Origin: an uncultured Verrucomicrobiota bacterium
GTDB lineage: Bacteria > Verrucomicrobiota > Verrucomicrobiia > Limisphaerales > UBA9464
Reading direction: 5' to 3'
NCBI GenBank assembly: GCA_903835555.1
Contig: CAILNN010000007.1
Span: 16,342 to 80,341, forward strand
DNA: 64,000 bases
The stretch's first letter is position 1; the number at the start of each line of letters is the position of its first letter. Positions 1,867 to 21,591 of the stretch are shown in pieces. The translations under genes were made by a program, and so were the position numbers. Under the pieces are notes generated by a model. That model saw nothing but the letters and a program-made list of their open reading frames with translations, ran no database searches and was not told the origin of the DNA.

Positions 1867-1913
1867 TTTTTTCCAGATCGGGTGAGACCCAGTTCTTTTT
1901 CTCCGGGCTAAGA

Positions 1914-3554: not shown

Positions 3555-3606
3555 CGCCCTTAGATTGCCATTGCCTGGGCTGGTCCGATGTCATTCCATC
3601 ACTTGG

Positions 3607-4083
3607 ATGGTTTCCTTCCGATTCTTCTTGAGTCTCTTGATGATTGGATTAGCGGTGCTTTGCCCGGGATGTCGTCCCACACCGCCCGTCGCTGAGGGCG
3701 TGATTACCCCCCATTTGCATCATTCGCCGCATGGTGGGACCGCAGTTGAGCTGGGAAAAGAAGAGTACCACTTGGAGTTGGTCCATGAAACGGGAAGCCC
3801 ACAAATGACTGCCTACATCTTGGACGGGGAGTTGGAAAAGTTCATTCGCTTGCCGTTGGCGGAGTTTATCATCCGCGTCAAAGGCCAAAATAGCGAAATG
3901 CTTCGATTTCAAGCATCTGGAAATCCGGCGACGGGGGAGAAAGTTGGGGATACCTCCGAATACATCGCCTCCAGCTCTTGGCTGACAAACCATGCCGAAT
4001 TTGACGGCGTCTTGGTTGAAATCAAGATTGGTACGAAGACATACCAGGAAGTAGCCTTTAGCTATCCAAAAGGAAACGAATGA
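3607..4083 (+). CDS. Hypothetical His-rich lipoprotein
   Basis: Start chosen at ATG 3607 (MVSFRFFLSLLMIGLAVLCPGC, lipobox). It has an HLHHSPHGG...YHLELVH motif. Its stop overlaps the next start (ATGA at 4080-4083). Confidence 0.55.
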   Translation: MVSFRFFLSLLMIGLAVLCPGCRPTPPVAEGVITPHLHHSPHGGTAVELGKEEYHLELVHETGSPQMTAYILDGELEKFIRLPLAEFIIRVKGQNSEMLRFQASGNPATGEKVGDTSEYIASSSWLTNHAEFDGVLVEIKIGTKTYQEVAFSYPKGNE

Positions 4084-4715: not shown

Positions 4716-4903
4716 GGGTCCCGCGGGCGGCCAGTTACCTTCGGTTTTTGCGAAATTGGGGTGACTTAGACTGCCAAGCTGGTCTGGGGGGATGCGGTAC
4801 GGTAGCGTCTCCCCTTGGTGCTCTGGGGCGGGCTATGAATAGCTTGCGGGTGATGCCCGGTTCGGACCGCGCCCGGCTCAACAGAATCTCGGCCGATGTT
4901 GCT

Positions 4904-4932
4904 TTGCTTCAATCGGTTACGTTTGATATAAT
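4904..4932 (+). promoter_or_regulatory. Near-consensus sigma70-type promoter with extended -10
   Basis: TTGCTT (4904-4909), a 17-nt spacer, then TGaTATAAT (4924-4932), about 60 nt upstream of ATG 4993. Confidence 0.4.
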
Positions 4933-4992
4933 GCCACTTGCGGAGAGGCATTTTGAAGTGCCGTACTAATTCCTCGAAATTTTTTCCCAGCT

Positions 4993-6075
4993 ATGCCGTC
5001 ACCGGTTTCTCTGGATATCCCTGCTGCAATGCAGGCTGCGGTCTATCGCGGCGAAGGCCGATTGTGCTTGGAAGAGGTAGAGGTTCCGCAGATTGAGTCG
5101 GGAGAAATCCTCGTCCGAGTGGCTGCCTGCGGTGTTTGCCCAACGGACATCAAAAAAATCCACTACAATACAGTGGCTCCGCCGCGAATTTTCGGGCATG
5201 AGACTTCCGGAACGATTGTCCAGGTGGGAGCGTTGGTTCGTGGATTTGAGGTCGGCGACCGTGTGGGGTTGCACCACCACGTGCCGTGCATGGACTGCCA
5301 TTTTTGTAAGCATCACGCTTTTGCTCAATGCGCTACATACCGAAGAACCGGGATAACCGCCGGATTTGAACCCTCTGGCGGAGGATTTGCCGAATTTGTC
5401 CGGGTAATGCCTTTCTGCCTGCCGGGAGTGGTGCGAATTCCACGGAAGAACAGTTTCTTGGAGGGTGCCCTTCTGGAGCCGGTAAACACGGTGCTCAAGG
5501 GCATTCGGCAATTGGGGTTGCTGCCAGGGGATACGGTGTTGGTCTGTGGTCAGGGTCCGATCGGTCTGCTTTTCACCAGAATATTATCGATTCACGGCAT
5601 GCGCGTCATCGCGACCGATCTTCTCCCCAACCGCTTGGTTCTGGCCAAACAATGGGGTGCCTGGCAGTCGATAGAAGCCAATGAGCACCAGGTTGCTGAA
5701 TCAGTGGGACGATGGACCGAAGGGCGTGGTGCCGATGCGGCGGTGGTAGCGGTCCCAAATGACGGCGCCGTATGGCAAGCGCAGTCCGCCATTCGCGGCG
5801 GCGGACGCGTCCTACTGTTCGCCCATACGGTTCGCGACCGACAAACGTCCATCGACTTGGCCAAAATCTGTGTGGATGAAAAGGCGTTGGTGGGTAGCTA
5901 TTCATCGGATTTTACCCTCCAAAAGGCCGTCGCGCGCCTAGTGTTTTCCCGACAATTGGATGTTCGACCGTTGATTACCCACACCTTTCATTTGGCGCAA
6001 ACATCCGAGGCGGTCGGATTGGCGGCCAAACCGACTGCAGAATCGCTAAAGATTGTCGTGACACCTGGAGTATAG
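4993..6075 (+). CDS. Zinc-dependent medium-chain alcohol/polyol dehydrogenase family protein
   Basis: Contains GVCPTDIKK and GHETSGTIVQVG, a structural-zinc Cys cluster (CMDCHFCKHHAFAQC) and a Rossmann motif (VCGQGPIG). Confidence 0.8.
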   Translation: MPSPVSLDIPAAMQAAVYRGEGRLCLEEVEVPQIESGEILVRVAACGVCPTDIKKIHYNTVAPPRIFGHETSGTIVQVGALVRGFEVGDRVGLHHHVPCMDCHFCKHHAFAQCATYRRTGITAGFEPSGGGFAEFVRVMPFCLPGVVRIPRKNSFLEGALLEPVNTVLKGIRQLGLLPGDTVLVCGQGPIGLLFTRILSIHGMRVIATDLLPNRLVLAKQWGAWQSIEANEHQVAESVGRWTEGRGADAAVVAVPNDGAVWQAQSAIRGGGRVLLFAHTVRDRQTSIDLAKICVDEKALVGSYSSDFTLQKAVARLVFSRQLDVRPLITHTFHLAQTSEAVGLAAKPTAESLKIVVTPGV

Positions 6076-6184
6076 CCTCAGTAGAGCGCAGCGTTGGGCT
6101 CCGGCTTTGCGGATTTGGGACTGAACGGACTGCCACGCCGGTCTGGATCAAGCAGTCGAGACGTCTGCGCTCCAAGGGAAGGTA

Positions 6185-7042
6185 TCAGGTGCCGAAGAGT
6201 CGGTTAAAGTTTTCTTCCACCTGGACCTGAAGTTCGCCGAGGTCAGTTTCGAGCCATTTGGCCAAGTATTCGTAAATCGCGGGGAGGTTGGCGGGATGAT
6301 TCAGCGCCCGCGTGGGTTCGAGCTCCGAGAATAAAGGGAACTGGGTAAGCTCTTCGGGCGGAAGTTGGTCCGGGGCATCGGTTTCGACGAGAAGGCGATC
6401 GCGGGGAATTTTTTGGAAGACCTCGCGCTGGCGACGTTTACGATCCAGCGCAAAGTAGCCCGGGAAACTAAAATAGGCTCCAAGCTTGGCGAGTTCCGGC
6501 ACCAAGTCCGCAGAGCCGCCGTAGCTGTGAAGTAAGAACCCACGAGGGGCTCGTTCCTCGGTGCGCAGAATTTCGAGCAGGCGTCCCCAGGCATTCAGGC
6601 AGTGAACCGTGATCGGACGTCGAAATCGAACCGCCAGCCGCCATTGGGCAACAAAAGCCTCGATCTGTTGAGTCAAGGTGGCTGGTTCACTCTTTAGAAA
6701 ATCTGGTTGGTATCGGGCTCGGACAGAAGGCGGTTGGGCCAGTATCCATCGGTCGAGGCCAATTTCGCCCACGGCGGAATGTGGATACTTGGTCAAGAAC
6801 TGCTCTAGCAAGTCCAACGCGTTCGAACGCATTTCATGGAGATACCACGGATGCAATCCAAAACTAGGAATAACCAACCTGCTAAGTTGGGAGCACTCGA
6901 GGACCTGTGGCCAATCGTCGGCACACGCACCGTTGACAACCATTCTAGTAACGCCTACAGACTCAGCAGTGGCCAACAATCTGGATTGTCGGTTTGAGAA
7001 TCGGGCGTCCTGCAAATGATTATGGGCGTCGCAGAAGCTCAT
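6185..7042 (-). CDS. tatD: TatD-family metal-dependent hydrolase
   Basis: Start chosen at MSFCDAHNHL (the TatD N-terminal HxH motif). This ATG forms an ATGA overlap with the upstream sufE-like stop at 7039-7042. The 92-aa upstream extension of the listed ORF overlaps sufE. Confidence 0.75.
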   Translation of the reverse strand: MSFCDAHNHLQDARFSNRQSRLLATAESVGVTRMVVNGACADDWPQVLECSQLSRLVIPSFGLHPWYLHEMRSNALDLLEQFLTKYPHSAVGEIGLDRWILAQPPSVRARYQPDFLKSEPATLTQQIEAFVAQWRLAVRFRRPITVHCLNAWGRLLEILRTEERAPRGFLLHSYGGSADLVPELAKLGAYFSFPGYFALDRKRRQREVFQKIPRDRLLVETDAPDQLPPEELTQFPLFSELEPTRALNHPANLPAIYEYLAKWLETDLGELQVQVEENFNRLFGT

Positions 7043-7470
7043 CCGTGGTCCCGCGATAAACCCGAATTCGAGGCAAAATCCCGAATTTTCGAAGCTAGAC
7101 GTAGGATGGTGGCCCGGCGGTTGTCCGCCAATTGGCGAAGGACACCCCACTTTTCCAGCATATCGGCTTGGAACTGTTGTTGTTCCTGAAGGGACAGGGA
7201 GGTGGCCTGCTCGCACAAGAATCCACCGAGGGCTTTGAGCGTGACGGCGTCGGAATCGAGGCCAAACCAGCAGGCATGCGAACGAATTTCCCCAATCCAC
7301 CATGTCCGGACTTGGCAACCTTCCACGCGGTTGACGTCCAACCGATAGGCGTCGGGAAGAGGCATCCTCTTTCGCGCCCGTTCAACGAGGTAAATAAACC
7401 GTTGCTGCGGGTCTCGCAATTGATCGAGCAATTCCATGGCCTCAGCTAGGGATAGGTCATTGATTGTCAT
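7039..7470 (-). CDS. sufE: SufE-like sulfur-acceptor protein
   Basis: The SufE pattern is present (RFIYLVERARKRMPLP...NRVEGCQVRTWW). Start chosen at MTINDLSL (7470), which gives the usual length of about 140 aa; the alternative start is 7587. Confidence 0.65.
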   Translation of the reverse strand: MTINDLSLAEAMELLDQLRDPQQRFIYLVERARKRMPLPDAYRLDVNRVEGCQVRTWWIGEIRSHACWFGLDSDAVTLKALGGFLCEQATSLSLQEQQQFQADMLEKWGVLRQLADNRRATILRLASKIRDFASNSGLSRDHG

Positions 7471-7760
7471 CACCAGTGAATCTAGGCGATCGTTGGTCCC
7501 GAGGCTAATCCGCACGTTTTCTGACGCCAAGCCCAAGAAAAAGAGTGATTCGAATGGGTCGGAAAATTGGTTATACCGATCCATCATTGCCGAAATAAGT
7601 TCAAGGTTGAGTAAATTGCGGTTCGGGAAATTGGAGTTAAACTGGTAAGTAAGGGTCTCGAACGTAACTTGGCCTTGAAAATTCGATCCGAATGACCTTA
7701 GGTGTAGAAATGAGATGGAACGGGTGAAAACCCGCCCTAGGCATTTTCAGTATTGCGCAC

Positions 7761-8324
7761 ATGACCGCCAGAAATCAGCAGCGCCCGACTTTTTTAAGTC
7801 AAAAACTCTCTGCGATTATTATTGGGATCGTCCTTTTGGGCATCTTCCAGACAACCGCCGAGACGATTGGCTCCATACCTCCACCACTGGAAACTCCGAA
7901 GGGCCCGGTCCTTTTGACGGTTACCGGCAAGATTACCCAAAAGAACCGAGGAGACTCGGCAGTCTTTGACTTGGAAATGCTGGATCGGCTGGAACTTGGA
8001 GTCATCAAGACGGCAAACCCGTGGATTGCCGGCACGAATGAGTATTCGGGACCGAAATTCTCGGCACTGCTGAGAGCGGTCGGTGCCTCTGGAACGAATC
8101 CTGTGGTTGTTACAGCATTGAACGATTATGTCGGGAAAGTGCCGGTCGATGACATTGTTAATCTTCACTTGATTTTGGCGACGCGTAAGAATGGGAAGCC
8201 GTTAAAGATTCGGGAGAAGGGACCGCTTTTCGTCGTCTATCCGTTTTCTGAACGGCAGGACATCTATGACGAGGTGCATTTTTGCCGTTCAGTGTGGCAG
8301 ATTAAATCGATCGAAATTCGCTGA
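7761..8324 (+). CDS. Small periplasmic protein resembling the molybdopterin-oxidoreductase (YedY/SorA-type) substrate domain
   Basis: It has an N-terminal TM/signal segment. The pattern NPWIAGTNEYSGPKFSALL...ALNDYVGKVPVDD...ILATRKNGKPL..REKGPLFVVYP is recalled from that fold. It lies 84 nt upstream of the kinase gene. Confidence 0.45.
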   Translation: MTARNQQRPTFLSQKLSAIIIGIVLLGIFQTTAETIGSIPPPLETPKGPVLLTVTGKITQKNRGDSAVFDLEMLDRLELGVIKTANPWIAGTNEYSGPKFSALLRAVGASGTNPVVVTALNDYVGKVPVDDIVNLHLILATRKNGKPLKIREKGPLFVVYPFSERQDIYDEVHFCRSVWQIKSIEIR

Positions 8325-8408
8325 GATGGCATTTGAAACCACCACGAGCGTAGGTCCAGACTACGTTACGACCGCGCTCTTATGTCGGCATCTAAAGTAG
8401 CATAGAAG

Positions 8409-11108
8409 ATGCCTTTTCTGACGCAAGCCCTGATCGCCGGTGTCATGCCACGAAATCGGAAATTTACCCTTTCGGTGTTGCTGCTGGCTTTCGTTCTGGC
8501 CGTTTGCTCTTTGACGATCGCGGCGAGGAGCGTGTTCTTGCTTCAGAACCTCTCCGAGACATTGGATGAAAAGGAAAACAGCGTCCGAGAAAACGCAGTC
8601 TGGTCGGCCTTTACCATCGAACGCGAGACGGGTGAACTGGAGCACGCCCTTAAGCTTTTCCGCCACAAAATACAAGGGACCACGGAATCCGATTTATCCC
8701 AACGCCTGGACATCCTACTCAGTAGCCATCCAAACCTGTTCGTGGCCAATCTAAAGGAACCGTTTAATTCTAACACTGAATACACCAACATGGTGGGTGG
8801 AGTGATTAGTCGGCTACATGATTTGGAAAACAAATATGGGAACACTTTTGAAAACGGTCCCGTTGACGAAGCGACGCTTCAATCCCTATCCACAGATGTA
8901 AGCGACCTCCGTGAAATGACCAAGGTCATGGCCAGTCTAACCAATGACATTCAGGAAGCAAAGAAGGCTCAAAATCGAAAAGAAACCCGGAAGCGCTTTT
9001 CGACTCTTATTTTCCAGATCACTGAAGTGGCAACACTCCTATGCATCGTGGTGGGACTTATGGCAAGGCAATTGTCGAAAACGCGCAAGACCAATGAGAA
9101 ACTCGAACAACTGAATATAAAGTTAGGGAACGCAAACACGCGTTCGGAAGAAGCCGCCGCCGAGGCACAAGCGGGATCGCGGGCCAAGACGGTATTTCTG
9201 GCGGTAATGAGTCATGAAATCCGAACTCCATTGAATGGGATTATCGGCAACGTGGACCTTTTGGAGGGGCCAAACCTCAATCGGGACCAGCGAGAATCCG
9301 TGGAAACTATTCGGGAATGCGGCACCTCGCTATTGGAATTGATTGACGATGTCCTTGATTTTACCAGGTTGGAGGCCGGTTTGATCAAGTTGGAAAATCG
9401 GCGTTTTGAATTGGGGACCGTCATTGAATCAGCCGTGGATATCGTCTCGTACAGAGCCAGGGCCAAGGGTTTGGGATTGATCGCACTCTATCCGAGAGCG
9501 CTTTTGGATGGAGATGAGGTGCGTATCCGTCAAATTTTGGTCAACCTGTGCGCCAATGCCATCAAGTTCACCGAGCACGGTGATGTGGTTATCTCGGTTC
9601 AACGCATCGCCGAGGAAGCGGGACGCGCATGGCTTCGTTTTGAAGTCCGAGATACGGGGATAGGGATTCCCAAGGATGCACAGTCAAAACTCTTTGAAGA
9701 ATTCAAGCAACTCGATGCCTCTATCAAGCGCAAGTATGGCGGGTCCGGCCTTGGTTTGGCGATATGCCGACGTCTCATCACGGCGATGGAGGGCAAGATT
9801 GGAGTTGAAAGCGATACCGGAAAGGGAAGCTGCTTCTGGTTTAGCCTGCCGATTGCAGAGGAAATTCCAGTCGCTCCGATAGACATAATATGGCCGACAG
9901 AAACGCTCAGACTTGCGACGATATCCCCGATGGCCGGTGAAGTGATGCGGCGCGAATGGGGTGAATCTCGAATGATACCGTATCGGGCGACTGACCAGAA
10001 CGCAGTGAATCCGTCAAGCGAATGGGCGATGATCGATGTCCGCAATCTTAGGAGTACCACAGTTTCGGGAATCGACCCAACCAGAATGCTGGTATATGGT
10101 TATGAGGCAGGAAAATACCATGAGGCAGCCGTGGTCGTGGACGGGCCCCTCACCACTCGCAGACTTCAGCAGGCTTTGGAGTCACCACAAAAAATGCGGC
10201 GAGAAGTGGAAGCCCAAATGCCTCGTGACCATCCTATGCTTCTTCGGGGGAAGGTTTTGTTGGTCGAGGACAACCTTGTCAATCAGACGGTGGCGACCAA
10301 GCTTCTCCGCAAACTAGGGCTGACTGTCGAAGTAACGGAGGACGGTGCGCAGGCAGTCGAGCGGCTTGAAAAAGGCGCAGTTGATCTCGTCATCATGGAC
10401 ATGCAGATGCCCGTAATGGATGGATTGGAAGCAACCCGGAGAATTCGGAAACTCCGTCCCGATCTGGCTTCGATTCCGATTGTTGGACTTACTGCCAATG
10501 CATTCGAATCCGATCGAGAGGATTGCTTGAATGCGGGTATGAATGACTTTTTTTCAAAACCGGTCAACCGCGAGATGCTGGAGGCGATGGTGGTGAAATG
10601 GTGTTCCAATAATCGTCTGTCTCGAGACGCAGGCGCAGAATTGGTAGGTGAGCCCGATCATTTTGAAAACGCGACCTGTTCATCGTTACAAACATTGCAT
10701 TTGAATGGCCGCGTCGTTCAGGCAGACCTAGCAGCGACTCAAGAGTCTAATCATTCCGATACACCGGCCAACTCAAATCCATTCGTAGACTGGAAGCGCC
10801 AACAATCGATTGCTGAAGACCTCGGACCGGAAATGGTCGTCGAATTGGTTGAACTCTTTTGGAAGGACTTCGAGCAATTGCTCGCCGAGCTAAAACAACC
10901 AACTGCCTTGTCGGATTCGGAGTCGACCCGGCGGGTTTTCCACACGATCAAGGGAACATCAGAGGCCGTGGGTTTCACGGCAATTCTTGAAGCGGCGTCG
11001 GCCACACGCGATACGTATTTGAAACTCGGTATACTTGACCTGACACCCCTACAAAATGCGAAAGCGGCTACGCGGCAGTTTTTGGAGCAGGTTGCGGCTT
11101 CGGGGTGA
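8409..11108 (+). CDS. Hybrid sensor histidine kinase / response regulator with C-terminal Hpt domain
   Basis: Two TM segments flank a sensor domain of about 160 aa. It has an H-box (MSHEIRTPLNGI), HATPase motifs (DTGIGI, GGSGLGLAI), a REC domain (LLVEDNLVNQ...DLVIMDMQMPVMDG...KP) and an Hpt motif (HTIKGTSEAVG). Confidence 0.9.
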   Translation: MPFLTQALIAGVMPRNRKFTLSVLLLAFVLAVCSLTIAARSVFLLQNLSETLDEKENSVRENAVWSAFTIERETGELEHALKLFRHKIQGTTESDLSQRLDILLSSHPNLFVANLKEPFNSNTEYTNMVGGVISRLHDLENKYGNTFENGPVDEATLQSLSTDVSDLREMTKVMASLTNDIQEAKKAQNRKETRKRFSTLIFQITEVATLLCIVVGLMARQLSKTRKTNEKLEQLNIKLGNANTRSEEAAAEAQAGSRAKTVFLAVMSHEIRTPLNGIIGNVDLLEGPNLNRDQRESVETIRECGTSLLELIDDVLDFTRLEAGLIKLENRRFELGTVIESAVDIVSYRARAKGLGLIALYPRALLDGDEVRIRQILVNLCANAIKFTEHGDVVISVQRIAEEAGRAWLRFEVRDTGIGIPKDAQSKLFEEFKQLDASIKRKYGGSGLGLAICRRLITAMEGKIGVESDTGKGSCFWFSLPIAEEIPVAPIDIIWPTETLRLATISPMAGEVMRREWGESRMIPYRATDQNAVNPSSEWAMIDVRNLRSTTVSGIDPTRMLVYGYEAGKYHEAAVVVDGPLTTRRLQQALESPQKMRREVEAQMPRDHPMLLRGKVLLVEDNLVNQTVATKLLRKLGLTVEVTEDGAQAVERLEKGAVDLVIMDMQMPVMDGLEATRRIRKLRPDLASIPIVGLTANAFESDREDCLNAGMNDFFSKPVNREMLEAMVVKWCSNNRLSRDAGAELVGEPDHFENATCSSLQTLHLNGRVVQADLAATQESNHSDTPANSNPFVDWKRQQSIAEDLGPEMVVELVELFWKDFEQLLAELKQPTALSDSESTRRVFHTIKGTSEAVGFTAILEAASATRDTYLKLGILDLTPLQNAKAATRQFLEQVAASG

Positions 11109-11110
11109 TG

Positions 11111-11842
11111 CTATTTTTTAACTTCCTTCATCAGCGCTTCCAATTGTTCGCCGGAAAGGGCTTTGAGGGCAGCCTTCAATTGATCCGGGGTCATTGCCGC
11201 ACTCGGGGCAGCCCCGCCACCGACCATGACCGGCATCTTCATTAAATCGTCGGGATTCCAGTATCCAGACTTAGCGGCGGTATCCTTGATCACGGTTGAG
11301 ACCATGTCCACAGACACCATCGGGGCTTTGTTACCCCAGGCGTTCCGGACATAGCTGAGGACATTGGCGATATCCTCCGGAGTCAGGCCGGCCGGATTAT
11401 CTGCGGTTTTGGCTTGGGCAGGCATCTGATTCTGCCCCCAAGCAGTGCCGTTCACTTTAACGGGACCTTCGAGTCCATGAAGGACGATGCGGATAATTCG
11501 GCTGGGACCTTCGGTGGTTACCCAATCCGAACCAGCCAAAGGAGGAATCCCACCACCGGGGTTGCCGTTCCCATCGGCTTGGTGGCAAGCAATACAAACG
11601 GCGGCGTAGACTTTGGCTCCCTTCTTGATGGTTTCGGCGTTGGGGTCCAAGGCAGCAACCACTGGTTTAGCCGGACGGCCATGGGGAATTTCGCTAAATT
11701 CGTCCGAATCAAAACGGCCACTGTATTTCCCAACGTAGAGACCGCCCCAAATCAACAGCGAGGCACTGCCAATCAAGAGCGACAGATTCAATGAACCGAA
11801 ACCGGGGCTACCGATCTTGGGGGTAGAGGAAAAAATCTTCAT
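11111..11842 (-). CDS. Membrane-anchored mono-haem class I cytochrome c (CcoP-position subunit)
   Basis: It has an N-terminal TM segment and CIACHQADGNG...PPLAGSDW...MPA...YVRNAWGN. Its ATG overlaps the upstream stop (ATGA at 11839-11842). Confidence 0.8.
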   Translation of the reverse strand: MKIFSSTPKIGSPGFGSLNLSLLIGSASLLIWGGLYVGKYSGRFDSDEFSEIPHGRPAKPVVAALDPNAETIKKGAKVYAAVCIACHQADGNGNPGGGIPPLAGSDWVTTEGPSRIIRIVLHGLEGPVKVNGTAWGQNQMPAQAKTADNPAGLTPEDIANVLSYVRNAWGNKAPMVSVDMVSTVIKDTAAKSGYWNPDDLMKMPVMVGGGAAPSAAMTPDQLKAALKALSGEQLEALMKEVKK

Positions 11843-12492
11843 TTGGATGCCTCCTCGGAGGGAACGGGAAGCAATGCTTCCGGAACTTCAACCGATGTAT
11901 GGAGGCTCTTGAGATAGGCCGCCAATTGATAGGCGGCCAAAGTTGGCACCACTTCTTCACCCACAGCAGGAGCAGCGGTGCCTTTCAGAACCAAAGCCTC
12001 CGCAGATGGACCGGAAATACGAACCGAGCGATGATCAAAGAGGAAAGGAAGCGGGGGACAGATGGTATTGGAGACCACGAGTTGCGGATTGAAAAGTCGG
12101 GTCAATGGGAATGCATTGGTACCCAAGCGTTCACCGTAGTTGGCCAAGTCCGGGCCCAAGCGATTATCACCCATCTGAACGGGCTCATCGTAGATATAAT
12201 CCCGTGCTACGGAGCGTCGACGCCCCCAACCTCTCGCGATATCGTTTCCGCCGTCCACTGGTCTAACCTGCTGAGTATGACAAGCGACACAACCGAGGGA
12301 GACATAGACCTGACGGCCTTGGGCGGCCTCACCGCTGCGAGCAGTCGGATACTGATAGGCCATCCCGGCATCATTAGTGCCGAGGTAGATCGGCAGATTG
12401 GATAGCTGGCGCTGAGGGTAGGCCACCATCCCCCACCATGACGCCGAAAACGCGGTCAAGACTCCGCAGAAAAGCAAGGCTCCGTGTTTCAT
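11839..12492 (-). CDS. CcoO/FixO-like mono-haem cytochrome c subunit
   Basis: The sequence GRQVYVSLGCVACHTQQVRP...GPDLANYG...LFNP matches the CcoO pattern. It starts 2 nt after the upstream stop. Confidence 0.75.
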   Translation of the reverse strand: MKHGALLFCGVLTAFSASWWGMVAYPQRQLSNLPIYLGTNDAGMAYQYPTARSGEAAQGRQVYVSLGCVACHTQQVRPVDGGNDIARGWGRRRSVARDYIYDEPVQMGDNRLGPDLANYGERLGTNAFPLTRLFNPQLVVSNTICPPLPFLFDHRSVRISGPSAEALVLKGTAAPAVGEEVVPTLAAYQLAAYLKSLHTSVEVPEALLPVPSEEASK

Positions 12493-12494
12493 CG

Positions 12495-13931
12495 TTACTT
12501 ATTATGCACGGCGGCGGTTTGATTTGGAGCCAAAACCCAGTCGAGAACTGGCTTTCCAAACGGAATTAGGAAATAACCAACAGCCACCAAAAGATTCGCC
12601 AAAAGGGCAAATTGGGAGCCAAGGAAGACAAGCAGGCCAAAAGCATGCAACCCGAGCCATGGCTTGAGGTTCTGAACGACCGTGACAATGGGCGTTTGGG
12701 AATTTAGTTCCCAACCCTGGCACCAACCGCCTACAAGAAGTGGAATCACGACAATGCCTACCCCGAAAATCGAGCCCGCCACGTGTAAGAACGAGAGGAT
12801 GGGAAACGGCAGCTTCCGTCCCAATAAGCGAGGAACCGCCACATAAATACCTGCAAACAGGGCCAAAGCAATAAAACCGAAGAAGGTCAATTGCTGCAAA
12901 CCGGTGAAAAACTCGGTATGCTGAAGAACTTCACGGGCGCAACGAAAACTAGTCAAAGCGGTCGCCAAGCCGGAAATCGTGAACGAGATTCCACTGAAGG
13001 TGGCCAAGAATAGCCCTGGAGAAGAAAGTAGAACACGAAGTTGAGGCGAGGTATGGAGACTGAGGCTGATGTGCACCGTCGGGATGATCAACAAAACCCC
13101 GGATGCCACAGCCAAGGTAGGTATCCATGCGGGAACTGGGCCGCCGACGAGTGAACTCCCAGCAGTCCAGCCAGATAGAATCAGCCAGGTCCAGAAGCCG
13201 ATAGCTTCATAAAAAGGTTGCCGCGACGCCCGACCGGACAATTCTGGAAGAATGGAGTATAACCCACCCAAAGCAATTGGCGTCAACCAGCCCAGGAGAA
13301 TTGCTTGTCCGTACCAACCCGCAATGATCGCCTGCAACACCCCGCGAACCGGCCAGTAAACAAGAGTCACTTCACCGGTAGCGAACGCCCAAGGAAACCA
13401 AAAGAGTGCCACCAGCAGGTAGGCTTGCGCCGTTGAAAAGCGCTTCTGGCTACGGCGGAAAAACAGCAGCGTACCGATGACTGCGAGTGTGATGTAGGAC
13501 AGGAATAGGAGAGGGACAACTTCCTTGGGAAGTTCCAACCAGCGATAGGCAACGCCTTGGCCGACCAAAATTCCGGGAACCCCAAACGTCAATGCCACGT
13601 TCCAACTAGCCACAGCGATAATGGCCAACCCACCAGCAGGCAGCGGACGTTCACCCAAGCGGGCCAAAAGCCAGAGGGTCAATGCCATGCCTGCCTGACC
13701 GGCAAAACCGTAAATCAAGGATGCATTGGCAGCGCCCTGAACCCGTCCTATGGACAAGAAGGCAAATTCGGCACCGAGGGTAGGGAATTGTAGTTTGACA
13801 GCGGCCACGAGGCTGAACACCAATCCAACCAGCAACCAAAGCAACCCGCTGCCGAAGAGATACAGGACGGGGCCTGCCGATCGAAGTTCGGAAGTGTCGC
13901 CGCGAACAGAAAATGAAGGACTAGACGACAT
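12495..13931 (-). CDS. Haem-copper oxidase subunit I (CcoN)-like 12-TM protein lacking the canonical His ligands
   Basis: The helix-by-helix motifs resemble CcoN (IGRVQGAANASLIYGF, AGWYGQAILLGW, GWTAGSSLVG, FTGLQQLTFFGF), but His is absent at all ligand positions. See findings. Confidence 0.75.
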   Translation of the reverse strand: MSSSPSFSVRGDTSELRSAGPVLYLFGSGLLWLLVGLVFSLVAAVKLQFPTLGAEFAFLSIGRVQGAANASLIYGFAGQAGMALTLWLLARLGERPLPAGGLAIIAVASWNVALTFGVPGILVGQGVAYRWLELPKEVVPLLFLSYITLAVIGTLLFFRRSQKRFSTAQAYLLVALFWFPWAFATGEVTLVYWPVRGVLQAIIAGWYGQAILLGWLTPIALGGLYSILPELSGRASRQPFYEAIGFWTWLILSGWTAGSSLVGGPVPAWIPTLAVASGVLLIIPTVHISLSLHTSPQLRVLLSSPGLFLATFSGISFTISGLATALTSFRCAREVLQHTEFFTGLQQLTFFGFIALALFAGIYVAVPRLLGRKLPFPILSFLHVAGSIFGVGIVVIPLLVGGWCQGWELNSQTPIVTVVQNLKPWLGLHAFGLLVFLGSQFALLANLLVAVGYFLIPFGKPVLDWVLAPNQTAAVHNK

Positions 13932-13938: not shown

Positions 13939-14307
13939 CTATTCGTAGGTCACTGCTTTGGTGGAATTTTCCAAACGCTTGAGAAGTTTGGCGCGAGCCT
14001 CCGAGTTGCCCTCCCGGGCTTCATTGGCAAACACTTCCAAGGCACGGGAAACGGGAAGCCGATAGACGCCGTTGTCGGCTTTCAGCACGGCGTAGTGGGT
14101 TAACGCGTCAGCATTCTGAGCTTGAAGCTCAGTCCAAAGTTTCTTCCGTTCCTCCGCCCGCGCCGTCCCAAGAGGAGTCGGTTGACCGGAGTTGACGAGG
14201 TACAAGGCAAGAAGCCCAACGACCAGAAGCGAACCGAGACCACCCAGCACCCAAGCGATGGAGGCTGAAAGGGCTTCGGAACGTGGAGTGCGATCATTCA
14301 TAAGCAC
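13939..14307 (-). CDS. Small single-TM protein of the ACIII/oxidase operon
   Basis: It is 122 aa with one TM segment (IAWVLGGLGSLLVVGLLALYLV) and a charged helical C-terminal half. It is wedged 15 nt after actF and 7 nt before the CcoN-like gene. Confidence 0.6.
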   Translation of the reverse strand: MLMNDRTPRSEALSASIAWVLGGLGSLLVVGLLALYLVNSGQPTPLGTARAEERKKLWTELQAQNADALTHYAVLKADNGVYRLPVSRALEVFANEAREGNSEARAKLLKRLENSTKAVTYE

Positions 14308-14322: not shown

Positions 14323-15606
14323 TTAATGAGAAGCAGGACCCGCAGAGGTTTCCGGCACGGGATGATAGGTGAGGGCTTCCTTGAGACGCGGATGGCGAAG
14401 GGGATAAGGAGGAAAGGAGCGGAAACTCTTCCACCACGCGAATCCGAGCAGAAAAGCCATCCCTCCCCAGCAAATTGGGTCAAATATCGTGACATGAAGG
14501 CCTTTGGGATAAAGAACCGGCATGACATTGAAGGTCATGTCGACGTAATGCATGAGCCATGCCCAGATTACAATGGGCCCCATGACCGTCATGCTTTGTT
14601 TGGCGTCGATTCTCAGGAGAAGGAGGAATGGAACAAAGAAATGGCCGAAAAGGATCAATAGACCGACATCCCACCAACTGCCTTCCTCACGCTTCACATA
14701 CCAAAAGGTCTCTTCTGGAATCGCGGCGTTCCAAATCAGGAAGTACTGGGAGAAGTGGATGTAGGCGTAGAAGACGGTAAAGGCGAAGAACAAGACACCG
14801 GAATCGTGGATATGACGCTTGGCGACAATGCCCTTGAGTTCCCGAGTTTGGAGCCATCGGGCAATGGCATAAATGGTGGCAAGAGTCACCCAGAAACTTC
14901 CAGCAAAGTAGTAAACACCATACATGGTGCTGAAGAACTGATGCATCAGCGATTTCATCAGGAGGAAGCAGGCGAGTGTCAGGGTGACGGCGAAGGCGTA
15001 AATGCCCCATGCAGCAAGAAAGCGTGCCTTTTGAGTCCAAATCGCCTTGCCATCTTTGTCCTGAGCCAGAGAGAAGCGTCGGAAGGTATGGGACATCCAG
15101 CCCCAAAACAGGAGAATCACAACCAAGAGCAGGTTGAATGAGTAGGAATTAAACAGAATCCGTTTCACCCCAAGAGCATGGTCGAGATTTGGGTCCAAGC
15201 TCATCCATGGATAGATGGACTTTTGCAGAGCCAATATCGGAAGCAGCAAGACCAACATCCAGGGAAAAAACAAGCATGCCATGTTTTCGGCAATCCGTAG
15301 CATTGGGACACTCCAAGCCGCATCAAATAGGTGGTGAATGATCAGGTAGAAAAGAGCTCCGACACACAGGCTCAAGCAGAACATGTAGGCGGTGAGGTAG
15401 CTATAGCCGATCTGAGCGACCAGGGTCGGTTCCACGGCTTCTTCTGATTCGCCATGACCAGCGGCGGCAACCTCCGCGCTTTGGAAAGTGGCGGTATTCG
15501 TTTCAGCCTTAGCTTCAGCGGCCAAGACTGAACGGGCGGAGGTAATCAAAATTCCGGCACAGGCCAACAGCACCCAGCAACGTTTAATGAAAGAGGTAAG
15601 GTTCAT
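14323..15606 (-). CDS. actF: Alternative complex III subunit ActF (quinol:cytochrome c oxidoreductase membrane subunit)
   Basis: It is a polytopic membrane protein in the ActF position, directly after actE, and about 420 aa long. Confidence 0.8.
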   Translation of the reverse strand: MNLTSFIKRCWVLLACAGILITSARSVLAAEAKAETNTATFQSAEVAAAGHGESEEAVEPTLVAQIGYSYLTAYMFCLSLCVGALFYLIIHHLFDAAWSVPMLRIAENMACLFFPWMLVLLLPILALQKSIYPWMSLDPNLDHALGVKRILFNSYSFNLLLVVILLFWGWMSHTFRRFSLAQDKDGKAIWTQKARFLAAWGIYAFAVTLTLACFLLMKSLMHQFFSTMYGVYYFAGSFWVTLATIYAIARWLQTRELKGIVAKRHIHDSGVLFFAFTVFYAYIHFSQYFLIWNAAIPEETFWYVKREEGSWWDVGLLILFGHFFVPFLLLLRIDAKQSMTVMGPIVIWAWLMHYVDMTFNVMPVLYPKGLHVTIFDPICWGGMAFLLGFAWWKSFRSFPPYPLRHPRLKEALTYHPVPETSAGPASH

Positions 15607-15612
15607 GGCCGG

Positions 15613-16260
15613 TTATTTGAGTTTCTCGAGAACGGGTGCAGGCACATCGTCTTTGCTGCCCAAGCGGCTTAATTGAATAGCGCGCAAATAGGCGACTATG
15701 GCCCATCGATCGGGAACGGGAACATTGCCGCCGTATCCCATCATGGTGTTCTTCCCGTAGGTGATGGTATTGAAGATTTCCCCGTCATTCATCTTGATGA
15801 TGCGTGGGTCGTGAAGATTGGCGACGGTGGACATGCCGAGCTTCTTGGTAATTCCATTGCCGTCTGCCTGAGCACCGTGACAGGGCTGGCAATAAATTAA
15901 GTAACGGTCCTGTCCGCGTTTGAGCAACTCGGAAGTAATGGGAACCGGGTTTACCTCGACGAAATTGTTAGGGATATCGCCCTTGGAAAAATCGCGTCCG
16001 GTGTTGAACGGATCATTTTTCCAGGTGGTATTATCCTGATATCCAACTTGTTGAGCCACGGTGCCAGCGGGAAAAGGACGGGATGAAACACCATCGGCAA
16101 ATCCCGGGAACGTGCTGTCCGTTTGCGGCCTCAGTTTGGCTTGGTTCTTCATGTCATTGAAGACCTGCAGCGGCGTCCGAGTGGAATACCCGCCACGGAA
16201 GCCGGTGATACCAAGCGTGGCCGCTATCGACAGGAAGAAGAAGAGAAAGAAGTAGCGCAT
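15613..16260 (-). CDS. actE: Alternative complex III mono-haem cytochrome c subunit ActE
   Basis: It has a single CQPCH motif and an N-terminal hydrophobic anchor. A 1-nt TAATG-type overlap joins it to actD. Confidence 0.85.
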   Translation of the reverse strand: MRYFFLFFFLSIAATLGITGFRGGYSTRTPLQVFNDMKNQAKLRPQTDSTFPGFADGVSSRPFPAGTVAQQVGYQDNTTWKNDPFNTGRDFSKGDIPNNFVEVNPVPITSELLKRGQDRYLIYCQPCHGAQADGNGITKKLGMSTVANLHDPRIIKMNDGEIFNTITYGKNTMMGYGGNVPVPDRWAIVAYLRAIQLSRLGSKDDVPAPVLEKLK

Positions 16261-16793
16261 TAGTCCTCCACAAGTTCAATTGCCTTGGCTCCAGCCGACT
16301 CCAGCAGCGCGCGCGCATCGGAGAATTTAGCATCCCGGGCCTCGATGCAGAGAAAGAAACGGTCGTCCGAGGCACGTTTGAACCGTTCGCTGTTAAACAG
16401 CGGGTGATGAAGACGGGGAAGTTGATTTAAGGCAAACATGCCGAAAATCGTTCCAAAAGCTCCCAACAGAATGGTCAGTTCATAACTGACCGGGAAGGCG
16501 AAGAGTGGGGTAAACAACGGTTTGCCACCGACGACCAACGGGTATTCAAAACCGTTCATGTACCAGATCATGGTCATGCCGGTGAAGAATCCGGTGAAGC
16601 CGCCGATGAAGGTGAACCAACCGACGGGCGAATTTTTCAGCCCCATGGCATCGTCCATGCCGTGAATGGGAAATGGGGTGAAGACATCCCAACGACGGTA
16701 ACCAGCATCTCGAACGCGGATCGCGGCTTCGAAGATATCGGCCGCTGTGTCGAATTCGGCCAGCAGTCCGTAGGGTTTAGGAGTAGAGCTCAT
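16260..16793 (-). CDS. actD: Alternative complex III membrane subunit ActD (DUF3341)
   Basis: It starts PYGLLAEFDT and has two TM helices. Size and position match ActD, and a 1-nt overlap joins it to actC. Confidence 0.85.
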   Translation of the reverse strand: MSSTPKPYGLLAEFDTAADIFEAAIRVRDAGYRRWDVFTPFPIHGMDDAMGLKNSPVGWFTFIGGFTGFFTGMTMIWYMNGFEYPLVVGGKPLFTPLFAFPVSYELTILLGAFGTIFGMFALNQLPRLHHPLFNSERFKRASDDRFFLCIEARDAKFSDARALLESAGAKAIELVED

Positions 16794-18271
16794 TAGTGAT
16801 GGGCTTCCTTGGCACCACCGAGAGGATGATGCGGGTCAGCTTGCGGGGTTACGCCCTTGACTTCGCTGATGGCGATGACGGGCAGGAAGCGGATAAACAG
16901 CAGGAACAAGGTCATGAACTGGCCAAAGCTTCCAACGAAAGTGAACACATCGACCCAGGTCGGGGTGAAATACCCCCAACTTGCGGGAAGGTAGTCGCGG
17001 TGAAGCGAGGTGACGATGATGACGAATCGTTCGAACCACATGCCGATGTTCACGACAATGGATACCAACCAAACGAACCACATGGTCTTGCGGCACCATT
17101 TGAACCAGAACAAGTGCGGGCTGATCACGTTGCAGGTGATCATGCTCCAGTAGGCCCACCAATAGGGACCGAAGGCGCGGTTTTTGAAAGCGTAGAGTTC
17201 GTAGGGGCTGCCGCCATACCAAGCGATGAAGAACTCCATCCCGTAGGCGTACCCGACCATGGAACCGGTGGCCAAGATGACTTTGCACATGAGGCCGACA
17301 TGGCGCTCGGTGATGACGTCTTCCAGCTTAAAGATCGTCCGCATCGGGATCATGAGGGTCAGCACCATGCCGAATCCCGAGAAGATGGCCCCGGCGACGA
17401 AGTAGGGCGGGAAGATGGTCGTATGCCAACCAGGAACCACCGAGACGGCGAAGTCAAAGGACACGATGGAGTGTACCGACAACACCAGTGGGGTGCTGAT
17501 ACCGGCGAGGATTAAATAGGCCTTTTCATAGTTCCGCCAGTGCCGGTTCGAACCGCGCCAGCCCAGCGCGAAAATTCCGTAAGCGATGGCTCGGATGCGA
17601 TTGGAGGCGCGGTCACGCAAGGTGGCGAGGTCGGGGATCAAACCAACGTACCAGAACAAAAGCGAAACCGTCCCATAGGTCGATACGGCAAACACGTCCC
17701 AGAGGAGCGGCGACCGGAACTGCGGCCAAATCATGTTCGAGTTTGGAATCGGGGCCAGAAAGAGGGGCGCATACCAGATACGTCCGACGTGAATAACCGG
17801 GAAGATGCCAGCGCAAGCGACGGCAAACAGGGTCATCGCTTCAGCGGCGCGGTTAATGCTGGTACGCCACTTTTGGCGAAGAAGGAACAAAACGGCTGAG
17901 ATCAAGGTTCCGGCGTGGCCGATACCGATCCAAAACACGAAGTTGGTGATGTCCCAAGCCCAAGCAACGGGATTGTTTAGTCCCCAAACGCCGACGCCAG
18001 TTGCAACCAGATAAGCGATCAGGGCATACATCAAACCCATCAAGCCGGCACTGCCGATGAAGGCGGGAAGCCACCAAGCCGGCATCGGGTTTTCGCAAAT
18101 GCCCGCAATTTTATTGGTGATCCAGCCGAGAGAACGATTGTTCAGTACCAACGGCGGATTAACCAACGCGGCAGGTGGGTCTTCAAGAACCACCGTCTTC
18201 GCCGGTGGGTGAGAATGGGCATGTCCAGTGGCGGCCTGGGCCGACAACGGGACGCTAGCGCTCTTGGCCAT
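16793..18271 (-). CDS. actC: Alternative complex III quinol-binding subunit ActC (NrfD/PsrC-like)
   Basis: It is a 10-TM NrfD-like protein. A TAATG overlap joins it to the actB stop at 18269-18273. Confidence 0.9.
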
Positions 18272-21200
18272 TAGGCAGCTCCTTTCTTCTCCGAAGCATG
18301 GCCAGGATGGCTCTCCTCGGTTTTCTCAAACGGATTTTCGTGACGGAACGTTTCGTAGTCGCGGAGGGAATCGGGCATGGTGCGCTTTTCCAACTTAGCG
18401 ATCTCCGGGTTGGGATTTCGAATTCGGGCAAGGTAGGTAACCCGGGGGCGAATATCGAGGAAGCCCAGAACCGAGTAGTTGCGAGGGTCTTTTTTTAATT
18501 CCGAAACCTTGCTCTTGGGATCGAGGAGGTTACCGAAATTAATGGCTTCCGCCGGGCAAACCTGTTGGCAAGCGGTCTTGAGAGCCCCATCACGCACCGC
18601 AACGTCCGAGCTGTCGCGGGCGATATTCTTTTGGGCGATCTTGGCCTGCTCAATCCGCTGGACACAGAAGGTGCATTTCTCCATGACGCCCCGCATCCGC
18701 ACGGTTACATCCGGATTCTTGACCAGTTTGATGATTTCCCATTGCGGATCGGTGTTCTTGTTTGGACCTAGCGGACCGTGATAGAGTGGTCCTTCCACAT
18801 TGAGGAAGAGGTTGCCTTCGTTTTTTCCGTAGCTGATCTCGCGCTTGTTGTAGTCGAAGAAATTGAAGCGCCGAACCTTGAAGGGACAGTTGTTGGAACA
18901 ATAGCGAGTGCCAATGCACCGGTTGTAGGCCATGACGTTGACACCTTCCTCGTCGTGGACGGTGGCATTAACCGGGCAGACGCTTTCGCAGGGAGCCGCC
19001 TCGCAATGCTGGCAGAACATCGGCTGGACAACCATCTGGGGGTCTTCAGAAACGTGTTCGCCAGTAATTTCCAAGGCTGGGTCGTGGCTGTAGTATCGGT
19101 CGAGACGAAGCCAGTGCATTTCACGGCCACGCATCACCTGGTCTTTGCCAACAATGGGAATGTTGTTTTCCGCCTGGCAGGCCATGACGCAGGCACCACA
19201 ACCGACACACGAGCCAAGGTCAATGGTCATTCCCCATTGATGAACCTCCGACTTGGTGAATGGATTCTGCTGGTACGGATGCTTATAGATGTTCTTGATC
19301 GAGCCATCTTCCCGATGCGGAACGTAGTGGGGGAGATGCTCATCAAGGTCCATGTGAGCGGCAAAATCAGCTCGCTCCTTGAACTGATCGAGATTGGCCT
19401 CGCGAATCACCGGACGCCCTTCCATCAGGCCGTGCTCCTGAACAGTGGCAACGAACGCCTTGCGAAGGATGGGTTTGAGGGTGGCACCCGTCGACCAATA
19501 CCGATTAGCCGCCGTCTGCAAGGCGTAAGCATTGAAACCACTGCCAGCTCCGACACGACCTACCACGGAACGTCCGTACCCAAGTGCCAGAGCGACGACG
19601 TTATCGGCCAAACCGGGCTGAATCCAAACGGGTCCACGGATGGTCCGGCCATTGACGGTGACTTCGATGATTTGCTGCTCGTATTGACCACTGTGGGCGG
19701 CGGCGTAGTCCGTCGATGCCCCCTGCCCTGTCAGGCCCAAGTTCTTGCCGGTCGCGGGAGAAATCATCACCACATTTTCCCAGACTATTTTAGTCACGGG
19801 ATCCGGCAGTTCCTGAAGCCAACCGTTGTTGGTGAACCGTCCATCGTCGACTTTAGAGTCGCGGTGCAAAATGACTTCGATTCCCGACGAAGTGGCGGGG
19901 GTAAAAGCTGCCCACGCTTTGAGGGCGGCTCTCGAATCAAACTTGCCGGAGACAGGTTCTGGAGCGCTATCCTTGAGAAAACCATCGTGGAGGAATTGTT
20001 TCCAAGCTTGATCGTCCCCTTTGAAGTTCGCGCGGACAATGTCGTAGGCCGACGACTTGGATTCACCCAACAAGCGGGCGAGGAATTCCAACTCGGTTAA
20101 GCCGCCGAGGAGCGGTTCAATCAAAGGCTGGACGGGTACCAACGTTCCATCACTGGTGAGGGCATCGCCCCACGATTCGAGGAAGTGAGTGGAGGAAAGG
20201 TGCCAGACATCGCCCTTGGTCTTGGCGGTGCTGGTTTCGTCCTCATAGTAGCCATACCGGATGATGTTCTTGGCTCCGGATAGGGCGGAGGCAAAGTCGA
20301 GATCAGCCGGGGCGTTGTAGACCGGATTGCCACCGAGGATGACGAGCGTATCCACACCGCTCTTGATGGCGGCAACGGCTTCCGACACTCCTCCGTGCGA
20401 AGGCGGCTGGGGCGTTGGAAGCAATTGGACCGTCTTGCCGATCGCGCCGAGTTCGGCATTGATGGCATGGGCGATCAGGTGGACGGCGAGCGGTTGTGAA
20501 TAACCGACGACCACGGCGATTGCTCCTCCGGCGGCCTTCAAGTCGTCTGCACAGGCTTTGGCCCAATCGGCACTGGCGGGAGAATCATGCGCCAAGCGTT
20601 GGCAGGCACCGGCTAGTTCGCCCTTGAGGATGAAGGAAGCAATTTGTGCGGCCACGCGAACGACGTCGCTGGGACGAACACGCAACCGGTGATCGGCCTG
20701 TCCGCCAGTGAGGCTGAACAAAGACTCGACCACATACAGCCGGTTCATGTCGTCGCCGGGCTTACGCCCGCGAGCAAATCCGCGAATGTGGTGAGCGGCA
20801 TCGGATTCAGAGCCGACAAAGTCACAATCCAGGGATAGAATTCGGCGCGCTTTCTCCAGATGGAGATGCGGAGTCACTTCGATGCCAAAGGCAAGGCTCG
20901 CCGATTCACGGTGAATATCGAAATCGACTGGCTCATAGGAAAACCATTTTGCCTTGGGGAATTTGGATACCAGCTTTTCCTGGAGAGTTGCGCGGGAGGG
21001 TGAGGTGCTGCGATCGGCGAGAATCACCAAACCGTCACCACTGTTGGCGGTAAACTTTTTGGCGGTGGCGGCGAGGGCGTCGCGGACCTTTTCCACTTTG
21101 ACGTCGTTGCCGTTCAGAGTATGCCGGGCACCGCGATCGGGATCGTAAAGATTCAGGAGGGCTGCCTGAGCGTAAAGGTCGGTGGCACCGTTGCTATCGG

Positions 21201-21591
21201 GATGCAGCGGGTTGCCTTCGATCTTGGTCGGACGCCCGTCGGAGGATTTGACAATGAGCGGAACGGCACCAGCTCGGGCCGGCATGGCGGTGGCGAAATA
21301 CTGCCAGCCTCCGTGGGTATAGTTCTCCGGCTGCTTTGCGAAGGGTAAAAGGTGTGTTTCCGGACGACGGCATCCGGCCGCCATGCCGCCGAGGCCAGCC
21401 AGCAGAAAACTGGCCGACATCAGTTTCATCCACTCGCGTCGGCTTTCACCTTCCGGAGCGATGCTCGCACCGGCAGGGAATTCGCGTTCAACCCATTGAC
21501 GGAATTCCGGACGATCCGCGAGGTGGTCCAAGGAACGCCAATACTTCGGGCCGGTTTCCGGCTCAGGACAAACAGGGGGAATCGTCTTCAT
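18271..21591 (-). CDS. actB: Alternative complex III subunit ActB (molybdopterin-oxidoreductase-like + 4Fe-4S domains)
   Basis: Start chosen at [21 protein letters not shown] (an ATGA overlap with the actA stop at 21588-21591). It has a Tat-like SRREWMKL motif and C-terminal ferredoxin motifs ([37 protein letters not shown]). The 126-aa N-terminal extension of the listed ORF overlaps actA. Confidence 0.9.

Follow-up and report, generated by a model that had tools for sequence, protein, structure and literature searches.

A CcoN-like protein without haem or copper ligands beside alternative complex III in an uncultured Verrucomicrobiota bacterium

What could the catalytic subunit of a terminal oxidase be for, once the residues that would hold its cofactors are gone? 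The question is raised by a 64-kb stretch of DNA from an uncultured Verrucomicrobiota bacterium (contig CAILNN010000007.1; the whole stretch is referred to as the window), in which a gene at 12495-13931 on the minus strand encodes a homologue of CcoN, subunit I of the cbb3-type oxidases, next to the genes of alternative complex III (ACIII). A first-pass annotation, made by eye from the letters, proposed that all six canonical histidine ligands are substituted and that the product is a catalytically dead pseudo-oxidase, kept as a structural, electron-conduit or proton-channel partner of ACIII. The reading frame is full-length, as had been claimed (478 aa, ATG start, single stop); its strand had not been given. 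The product is designated N*, and the CcoO-like and cytochrome c products encoded directly after it are designated O* and c*. The analysis described here suggests that N* is probably a non-catalytic scaffold and electron-output adaptor of ACIII, a reading that is preferred with some reserve.

Ligand columns and fold of N*

The ligand columns of N* were located by three independent alignments, all of which agree: a phmmer alignment to the solved CcoN chains 3mk7_A, 9g6b_A and 6xkw_n, a MAFFT alignment that includes 37 close relatives with a full ligand set, and an hhalign comparison of profiles that is gap-free near the sites (probability 100 %, E 4e-92, 454 columns). With Pseudomonas stutzeri numbering given first, the two ligands of low-spin haem b (H60 to A68 and H347 to Q347), the ligand of high-spin haem b3 (H345 to L345) and the three ligands of CuB (H207 to Q209, H257 to S259 and H258 to S260) are all absent, as is the cross-linked tyrosine of helix VII (Y251 to S253). 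The substitutions read by eye are thereby borne out for all six histidines and for the tyrosine, and the choice left between Ala67 and Ala68 is settled as A68, A67 being a mere neighbour of the ligand column.

None of the remaining histidines H287, H293, H338 and H383 stands in a ligand column. H383 corresponds to the conserved non-ligand H384 of canonical CcoN and is the only histidine that is 100 % conserved in the clade to which the window belongs. H293 and H429 are partially conserved there (64 and 73 % His, respectively), phenylalanine is the commonest residue in the H338 column, and H287 and H476 lie in variable regions of a 20-sequence alignment of the clade. Migration of the ligands to other positions was considered and rejected, as the clade alignments contain no conserved alternative set of His, Met, Lys or Tyr residues. 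The tyrosine has not relocated either, Y225 and Y363 being conserved in intact relatives too.

The fold, in contrast to the ligands, is retained. N* matches the Pfam COX1 profile (PF00115) end to end, from position 3 to 434 of 436, with 85.9 bits, and scores 52.6 bits against the ccoN equivalog TIGR00780, for which the cutoff is 583. An AlphaFold2 model built from the 20-sequence alignment (pLDDT 87.7, pTM 0.89) had the CcoN of 3mk7 (chain A, TM-score 0.87-0.89) as its best Foldseek match, and cbb3 CcoN chains superimposed on it with TM-scores of 0.86-0.89 and an rmsd of 2.1-2.5 Å at 18 % identity. Structures of NorB, from the nitric oxide reductase cNOR, were weaker matches (TM-score 0.77-0.79), and the NorB ligand signature of six His plus a Glu for FeB uses the same columns as that of CcoN, all of which are non-His in N*. 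It is therefore confirmed that N* is a CcoN fold without haem or metal ligands.

Erosion extends to many other residues. Intact ACIII-linked CcoN has 165 columns with a conservation of 90 % or more; both of the large ligand-less groups described below have lost 86 of these, and only 39 are kept in both. The doubly lost columns include E122, R57, W203, T215, S240 and Y251, the first of which is a Ca2+ ligand in canonical CcoN. Several invariant glycines near the haem sites have given way to larger residues in the window, G211 to Leu, G360 to Ala and G349 to Thr (mostly Phe in the clade).

A ligand-less family linked to alternative complex III

N* is not a one-off. Among the 120 matches listed from a 90 %-clustered protein collection, the ligand set is absent from 110 and present, as HHYHHHH, in 10. 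An exhaustive phmmer scan of 1.84 billion representatives (50 % identity) gave 215 hits at E <= 1e-30, and residues were tallied in the 140 full-length sequences among the best 150 of these; 136 lacked the full ligand set, and the number of histidines at the six ligand columns was zero in 78, one in 44, two in 11, three in 2, four in 1 and six in 4. A scan of one genome per species yielded 80 related loci (L001-L080), each from another assembly and nearly all from Verrucomicrobiota (Opitutales and Verrucomicrobiales-like), with a few from other phyla. The ligand set is intact in 31 of these loci and missing in 49, and all 11 members of the window's clade are ligand-less. Counted from the locus tables, ActABCDEF lies directly upstream in every one of the 47 ligand-less loci that have upstream sequence, and genes for O* and c* follow N* wherever a ligand-less contig reaches far enough.

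The ancestral arrangement is shown by an intact locus, L081, in which ActA-F are followed by a small open reading frame (ORF), a 68-aa FixS/CcoS gene, CcoN, CcoO and a cytochrome c. An HMM search found the FixS/CcoS gene just upstream of the CcoN gene in 29 of the 31 intact loci, the two misses both starting at a contig edge, and in only 1 of 50 ligand-less loci, the window included (Fisher p = 1.7e-18); in the window itself the search found none. The FixS peptide scores above the Pfam FixS cutoff. Because CcoS is required for the insertion of cofactors into CcoN, its co-loss adds independent support for a protein that would be free of cofactors. The sole ligand-less locus with FixS is L026 (10001-11290), in which a CcoN with the pattern HHSQHHH has lost the Tyr and one CuB His and is accompanied by a Met-type CcoO. 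With this pattern and 149 of the 165 conserved residues kept, L026 has the appearance of an intermediate that was inactivated only recently. Two features absent from Pseudomonas CcoN mark the intact ACIII-linked CcoN clade, namely an N-H-H motif that is invariant and lies at the cytoplasmic end of helix 8 (the P. stutzeri N289-G290-M291 columns) and an additional invariant His in helix 12 (the Q440 column of the window). They may represent a clade-specific channel entrance or contact with ACIII.

Whether such a gene is under selection was assessed from dN/dS by the NG86 method. Because synonymous sites are saturated between the window and its nearest loci, closer pairs were used. Over twelve ligand-less pairs, the ratio for N* was 0.04-0.29: 0.07 for L001-L002, 0.08-0.13 among four close relatives in the window's clade, 0.04-0.20 in the Opitutales group and 0.29 for the divergent pair L004-L013. 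The values for close pairs of the window's clade (0.07-0.13) resemble those of ActF (0.05-0.22) and of O* (0-0.18); neighbouring genes range over 0.03-0.30, and intact CcoN stands at 0.03-0.06. Constraint on N* is reduced, but selection is clearly purifying. Furthermore, 53 residues are invariant over 20 N* sequences of 38-80 % identity, and the invariant share is 23 % in periplasmic loops versus 1 % in cytoplasmic loops, which fits a conserved docking face on the periplasmic side. The invariant stretches of the periplasmic loops include GGPVPAW, R330-C331 and E133-P135.

These data bear on the possibility that N* is a decaying gene caught in recent pseudogenisation, or else an oxidase or NO reductase that still works, using unconventional ligands. 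A gradient of erosion, from 149 of 165 conserved residues kept in L026 to 77 in the window's clade, and the faster evolution of N* relative to its neighbours are what decay would produce. However, the reading frame is unbroken in all 49 ligand-less loci and in the 136 representatives without a full ligand set, dN/dS is near 0.1 in the oldest ligand-less clades, and 53 positions have stayed invariant among sequences as little as 38 % identical. Unconventional activity is opposed by the lack of any alternative conserved ligand set, by the non-ligand nature of the one fully conserved histidine and by the loss of the FixS maturation gene. Decay and cryptic activity are accordingly regarded as very improbable, in keeping with the first-pass annotation, which had already set decay aside, and N* is better described, from its homologues, as a member of a large ligand-less family.

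Re-use of N* for conducting ions or protons, or as a transporter working with ACIII, also has to be weighed against these patterns. Within the window's clade, the in-helix polar residues Q79, N111, Q209, T256, Q405 and Q440 do not vary, and a fixed E/Q/R/H/Q constellation occupies the former active site in the other large ligand-less group; both observations count in its favour. However, the former active-site columns differ between clades, and the cytoplasmic loops, where an entrance would be expected, are the least conserved part of the protein. The single K-analogue proton channel of CcoN reportedly includes S240, Y223 and Y317 among other residues (Buschmann 2010, Hemp 2007). Y223 is kept as Y225, and the rest has been dismantled: S240 is replaced by Glu in the window and by Ala or Glu in its clade, the Y317 column is Phe in 100 % of the clade, the Y251 column is Ala or Ser, and the T215 column, still Thr217 in the window, is Ala in 73 % of the clade. 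A conduit is therefore thought quite improbable, and of the roles suggested earlier the proton channel is disfavoured, while a non-catalytic structural role, as judged from the residue patterns, is supported.

The number of times that the ligands were lost was examined with trees of L001-L080 that are bootstrapped neighbour-joining trees only (50 replicates), built from an ACIII concatenate (2162 columns), from O* plus c* (349 columns) and from N alone. The two large ligand-less groups are united in 49 of 50 replicates of the N tree and in none of the 50 replicates of either the ACIII or the O*-c* tree, in which the window instead stands next to intact-ligand loci (50/50 and 48/50, respectively). 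A single origin of the ligand-less state, backed by the N tree alone, is rejected by both concatenates. The same derived residue is found in both groups at 23 of 55 doubly lost columns. The ligand-less locus L028, which falls among intact-ligand loci in both the N and the ActC trees, matches the consensus of the two groups at 9-12 of its 32 changed columns, a convergence of 30-40 %. Because the trees of flanking genes never unite the groups and L028 converges on them, several independent losses with convergent remodelling are favoured, the N tree being put down to convergence or long-branch attraction; replacement of the N gene alone by transfer would also explain the conflict. The residues kept out of 165 fall from 162 in intact loci through 149 (L026), 131, 127, 118, 101, 97, 95 and 84 to 77 in the window's clade, a gradient that argues for losses of different ages.

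Partner cytochromes and the role of N*

The two genes that follow N* encode c-type cytochromes. O* (11839-12492, minus strand, 217 aa) is a CcoO/FixO-like monohaem subunit with a PF02433 FixO match of 71 bits and a CVACH motif (C68/C71/H72), and c* (11111-11842, minus strand, 243 aa) is a membrane-anchored, CcoP-like monohaem class I cytochrome c with a CIACH motif (C83/C86/H87) and matches to PF00034 and PF13442. The CxxCH motif is kept in O* at 77 of 77 loci and in c* at 74 of 74, and conservation in the column of the c* Met in 'NQMP' is 90 % or higher; the c-haem portion of the former oxidase therefore appears to be still in use. The last ~32 residues of c* (AAPSAAMTPDQLKAALKALSGEQLEALMKEVKK; 11111-11245, minus strand) make up a tail rich in Ala, Lys and Glu, which at least 90 % of homologous c* proteins lack.

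The first-pass annotation had called both partners intact, which holds for the two haem-attachment motifs and for the c* Met but not for the rest of O*. The axial Met expected of a CcoO-type His/Met monohaem subunit, which is taken to be M136 in canonical CcoO, is replaced by Cys145 (codon 12058-12060, minus strand), and the CcoO W-H motif is lost, as judged from an alignment to solved CcoO chains. Both changes are present in 11 of 11 members of the window's clade, and Cys is also found at the axial column in two loci of a sister lineage, L084 and L085. All of the 28 intact loci have Met in this column; the ligand-less loci have His (20 loci), Met (17), Cys (11) or Val (1) there. Because the little-eroded ligand-less loci with a readable O* (L026, L028, L003 and L023) are still of the Met type, remodelling of O* seems to have followed ligand loss in N. 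The invariant Cys predicts an unusual haem c, possibly with His/Cys ligation.

A further cysteine is found in N* itself. Cys331 (codon 12939-12941, minus strand), in the periplasmic loop that joins helices 9 and 10, is shared by 20 of the 20 closest homologues, and intact relatives have Ser or Thr there. An intersubunit disulfide between Cys331 of N* and Cys145 of O* was considered, but the idea was weakened by L083, which combines Cys331 with a Met-type O*, and by L084, which combines Ser331 with a Cys-type O*.

Taken together with the gene order, these observations suggest how the module might work. N* would descend from the CcoN of an ACIII-linked cbb3 oxidase and be free of cofactors, keeping the 12-helix fold and the conserved periplasmic face and binding neither haem b, haem b3 nor CuB; unable to hold them, it would neither reduce O2 nor pump protons. 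It would serve as a membrane platform on which the single-helix c-type cytochromes O* and c* dock beside ACIII, and a former terminal oxidase would have turned into a cytochrome-c output module. Electrons would pass from menaquinol through ActC/ActB and the haems of ActA/ActE to those of c*/O* and on to an acceptor encoded elsewhere, which in the sister lineage would be an aa3 oxidase encoded immediately downstream. From residues and gene order we infer that N* would be catalytically dead and a scaffold, and likewise the absence of cofactors, the physical association with ACIII, and the route and direction of the electrons.

The sister lineage comprises L084, L085 and L086 (clusters at 1430-11478, 142-8332 and 258-8244, respectively), in which the genes for N*, O* and c* are followed directly by COX2, an A-type COX1, CtaA, CtaB, COX3 and SCO1. 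The A-type COX1 is intact and scores 497 bits to PF00115. On its upstream side, the L084 contig holds only the end of ActF and the small ORF. In L085 (1737-2384) and L086, the FixO-like O* has no haem motif, with GGVYAHS in place of GCVYCHS, and still scores 50 bits to the FixO Pfam family. By its sequence, cofactor loss in these two loci has spread to a second subunit, and without CxxCH, N* and O* would be structural only there.

Such loci lend some weight to the idea that N* is an assembly or stability factor only, acting on ACIII or on the cytochromes encoded downstream (CcoO might, for example, need CcoN in order to fold or insert), with no part in routing electrons. This idea shares the data of the scaffold model and is in line with the tight translational coupling of the genes, and the loss of the O* haem motif in L085 and L086 illustrates that parts of the module can be purely structural. 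However, the universal CxxCH of c* (74/74) and its Met column (at least 90 %) argue that one or more of the module's haems still serve in electron transfer, and a role confined to assembly is judged quite improbable.

The remodelled haem of O* gives rise to a different proposal, in which the module is a new terminal reductase or redox sensor: the active site would be the haem c of O*, assumed to be of the His/Cys type in the window's clade and bis-His in many Opitutales, N* would be its anchor, and menaquinol electrons from ACIII would reach a periplasmic substrate other than O2. His/Cys haems are catalytic in TsdA and SoxXA. The replacement of Met by Cys145 in all 11 members of the window's clade as well as in L084/L085, and the many non-Met residues in ligand-less loci compared with Met in all 28 intact ones, are replacements fixed by clade that argue for a newly selected property. 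However, the Cys-type O* of L085/L086 has lost its haem-attachment cysteines while the operon is kept beside an aa3 oxidase, so that the family can evidently do without haem chemistry at O*; moreover, Met is kept in 17 ligand-less loci, and Pfam scans of the window ORFs revealed no linked substrate-related genes. This proposal is considered unlikely, although a newly acquired catalytic or gating function of the Cys-type haem would be the most interesting alternative. A bolder version is held to be similarly unlikely: that terminal oxidases were converted repeatedly and convergently into cofactor-free scaffolds in several Verrucomicrobiota lineages and that the Met-to-Cys haem c of the window's clade gave ACIII a non-oxygen terminal redox activity or a low-potential gate. 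If true, it would represent a new type of respiratory module built from the remains of a cbb3 oxidase.

Several observations weigh against the preferred scaffold and adaptor model. An axial Cys normally gives a haem of very low potential, and its presence in O* is awkward for a simple relay downstream of ACIII. A gene for a terminal acceptor was found neither in the window nor within 10 kb of the operon in any of the 80 loci: Pfam scans of 20 further ORFs detected no other terminal oxidase in the 64 kb, and a search of the window and of the 10 kb on either side of the 80 loci with a bovine COX1 probe detected no A-type oxidase. N* evolves faster than every other gene of the operon (61 % identity for L004-L013, compared with 90 % for ActC), and constraint on it is therefore weaker than on a catalytic subunit. 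Finally, the periplasmic bias in conservation stems partly from variable termini.

Gene cluster and comparison with known systems

The N* gene is the eighth of ten closely packed genes on the minus strand. The cluster opens with actABCDEF in order (14323-22283), for which Pfam evidence comes from an identical locus, L087, present on boreal-lake metagenome scaffolds and carrying the expected families (NrfD, ActD, Fer4_11 and cytochrome c). ActA (21588-22283, 231 aa) is the multihaem cytochrome c of ACIII, with Cytochrome_C7/c3 matches in L087 and 51-82 % identity to ActA of related loci. ActB (18271-21591, 1106 aa), the Fe-S/molybdopterin-like subunit, overlaps ActA by 4 nt and is called as a gene with Fer4_11/Fer4_7 matches in L087. 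ActC (16793-18271, 492 aa) is the NrfD-type quinol-binding membrane subunit (PF03916 in L087; 61-85 % identity across loci), and it is followed by ActD (16260-16793, 177 aa; PF11821 in L087) and by the monohaem cytochrome c ActE (15613-16260, 215 aa; PF13442 in L087, CQPCH in the translation). ActF (14323-15606, 427 aa) is assigned as a second NrfD-like membrane subunit from its position and homology across loci; a Pfam scan gave no match, and window ActC matched the ActF gene of L083 weakly (tblastn, 22 % identity, E 7e-07).

Between ActF and N* lies a small single-helix ORF (13939-14301, 120 aa), an unnamed putative subunit that is called as a gene in L087 and matches neither Pfam nor NCBIfam. 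Its homologues occupy the same position in intact and ligand-less operons alike, and it probably represents a so far unrecognised subunit of the ACIII-cbb3 assembly; in L084 it is fused to a long Pro/Ala-rich tail. The tight coupling described earlier is seen in spacings of 7 nt between this ORF and N* and 2 nt between N* and O* and in a 4-nt overlap of O* with c*. A consensus scan found no internal promoter or terminator that would split the operon above shuffled expectation. The closest genomic relatives are uncultured freshwater Verrucomicrobia.

A gene for a hybrid histidine kinase (HisKA, HATPase_c, receiver and Hpt domains; 8409-11108, plus strand) converges on the end of the operon, with 2 nt between the stop-codon positions. 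Further periplasmic redox ORFs in the window, all on the plus strand, lie at 26708-28333, 30542-34117, 54-896 and 7761-8324 and encode two proteins with RoxA-like cytochrome c domains, a PSCyt1/cytochrome c protein and a small protein with a molybdopterin-oxidoreductase domain; none of the four is a recognised terminal oxidase.

The histidines of subunit I are treated as an invariant signature of the haem-copper oxidases, and a family without all six would reveal a second, non-catalytic life of the fold. From the just-inactivated L026 to fully remodelled loci, including the ACIII-N*O*c*-aa3 arrangement, the family offers a natural series in which it might be seen how 'accessory' subunits of supercomplexes arise from dead enzymes. 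There is also a practical consequence: because several ligand-less members are named 'cbb3-type cytochrome c oxidase subunit I' by NCBI and JGI, metabolic reconstructions that derive high-affinity O2 respiration from such genes in Verrucomicrobiota of freshwater, soil and gut probably err for over half of the sampled ACIII-linked loci.

An ACIII-cbb3 'superoperon' in Verrucomicrobia was reportedly noted by Refojo et al. in 2010. In Methylacidiphilum and Opitutaceae, it has been treated as encoding a functional C-type oxidase (PMC8498564, PMC6688271). The window has the identical order of ActABCDEF, small ORF, CcoN, CcoO and cytochrome c, and its ACIII and O*/c* genes are closest to those of intact-ligand loci of this type. 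However, intact loci have HHYHHHH, FixS and the CcoO Met, and the window has lost all three. Compared with the C-family cbb3 oxidase CcoN/CcoO/CcoP itself (P. stutzeri, 3MK7/5DJQ), N* shares the 12-TM fold and the full-length PF00115 match and is followed, in the same order, by a FixO-family partner and a membrane-anchored cytochrome c. Unlike that oxidase, it has neither the six His, the cross-linked Tyr, the Ca2+-binding Glu122 nor most channel residues; in addition, the window has no FixS/CcoS, O* has Cys for Met, and the third subunit is monohaem rather than dihaem.

The ACIII-aa3 supercomplex of Flavobacterium johnsoniae, in which membrane-anchored c haems act as a wire according to a secondary account (Sun et al., 2018, cited in PMC8498564), resembles the present system in that ACIII is coupled, physically and genetically, to a haem-copper oxidase module; L084-L086 encode ACIII (on the L084 contig just the ActF end and the small ORF), N*O*c* and aa3 in one cluster. 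In contrast, the Flavobacterium complex, as far as that account describes it, has no CcoN-like or CcoO-like proteins, whereas in these loci a dead C-family module would be placed next to ACIII and the real oxidase, or between the two. A sequence search of solved chains and Foldseek returned no structure with such an arrangement, and a full-text literature search returned no description of a ligand-less CcoN, reviews calling the ACIII-adjacent genes cbb3 oxidase.

Within the superfamily, a survey reported the active-site histidines to be fully conserved in all families but one, in which a single His is replaced (Murali et al., 2024, PMC11214002). gNOR and other NOR families from that survey are similar to N* in having a non-canonical His3-CuB/Tyr site within the same fold; however, they keep both haems and most metal ligands, whereas N* has lost all six His. 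The linkage of ACIII with cbb3 genes is itself already known, and what seems to be new is a derivative of the ACIII-linked cbb3 module that would be without cofactors.

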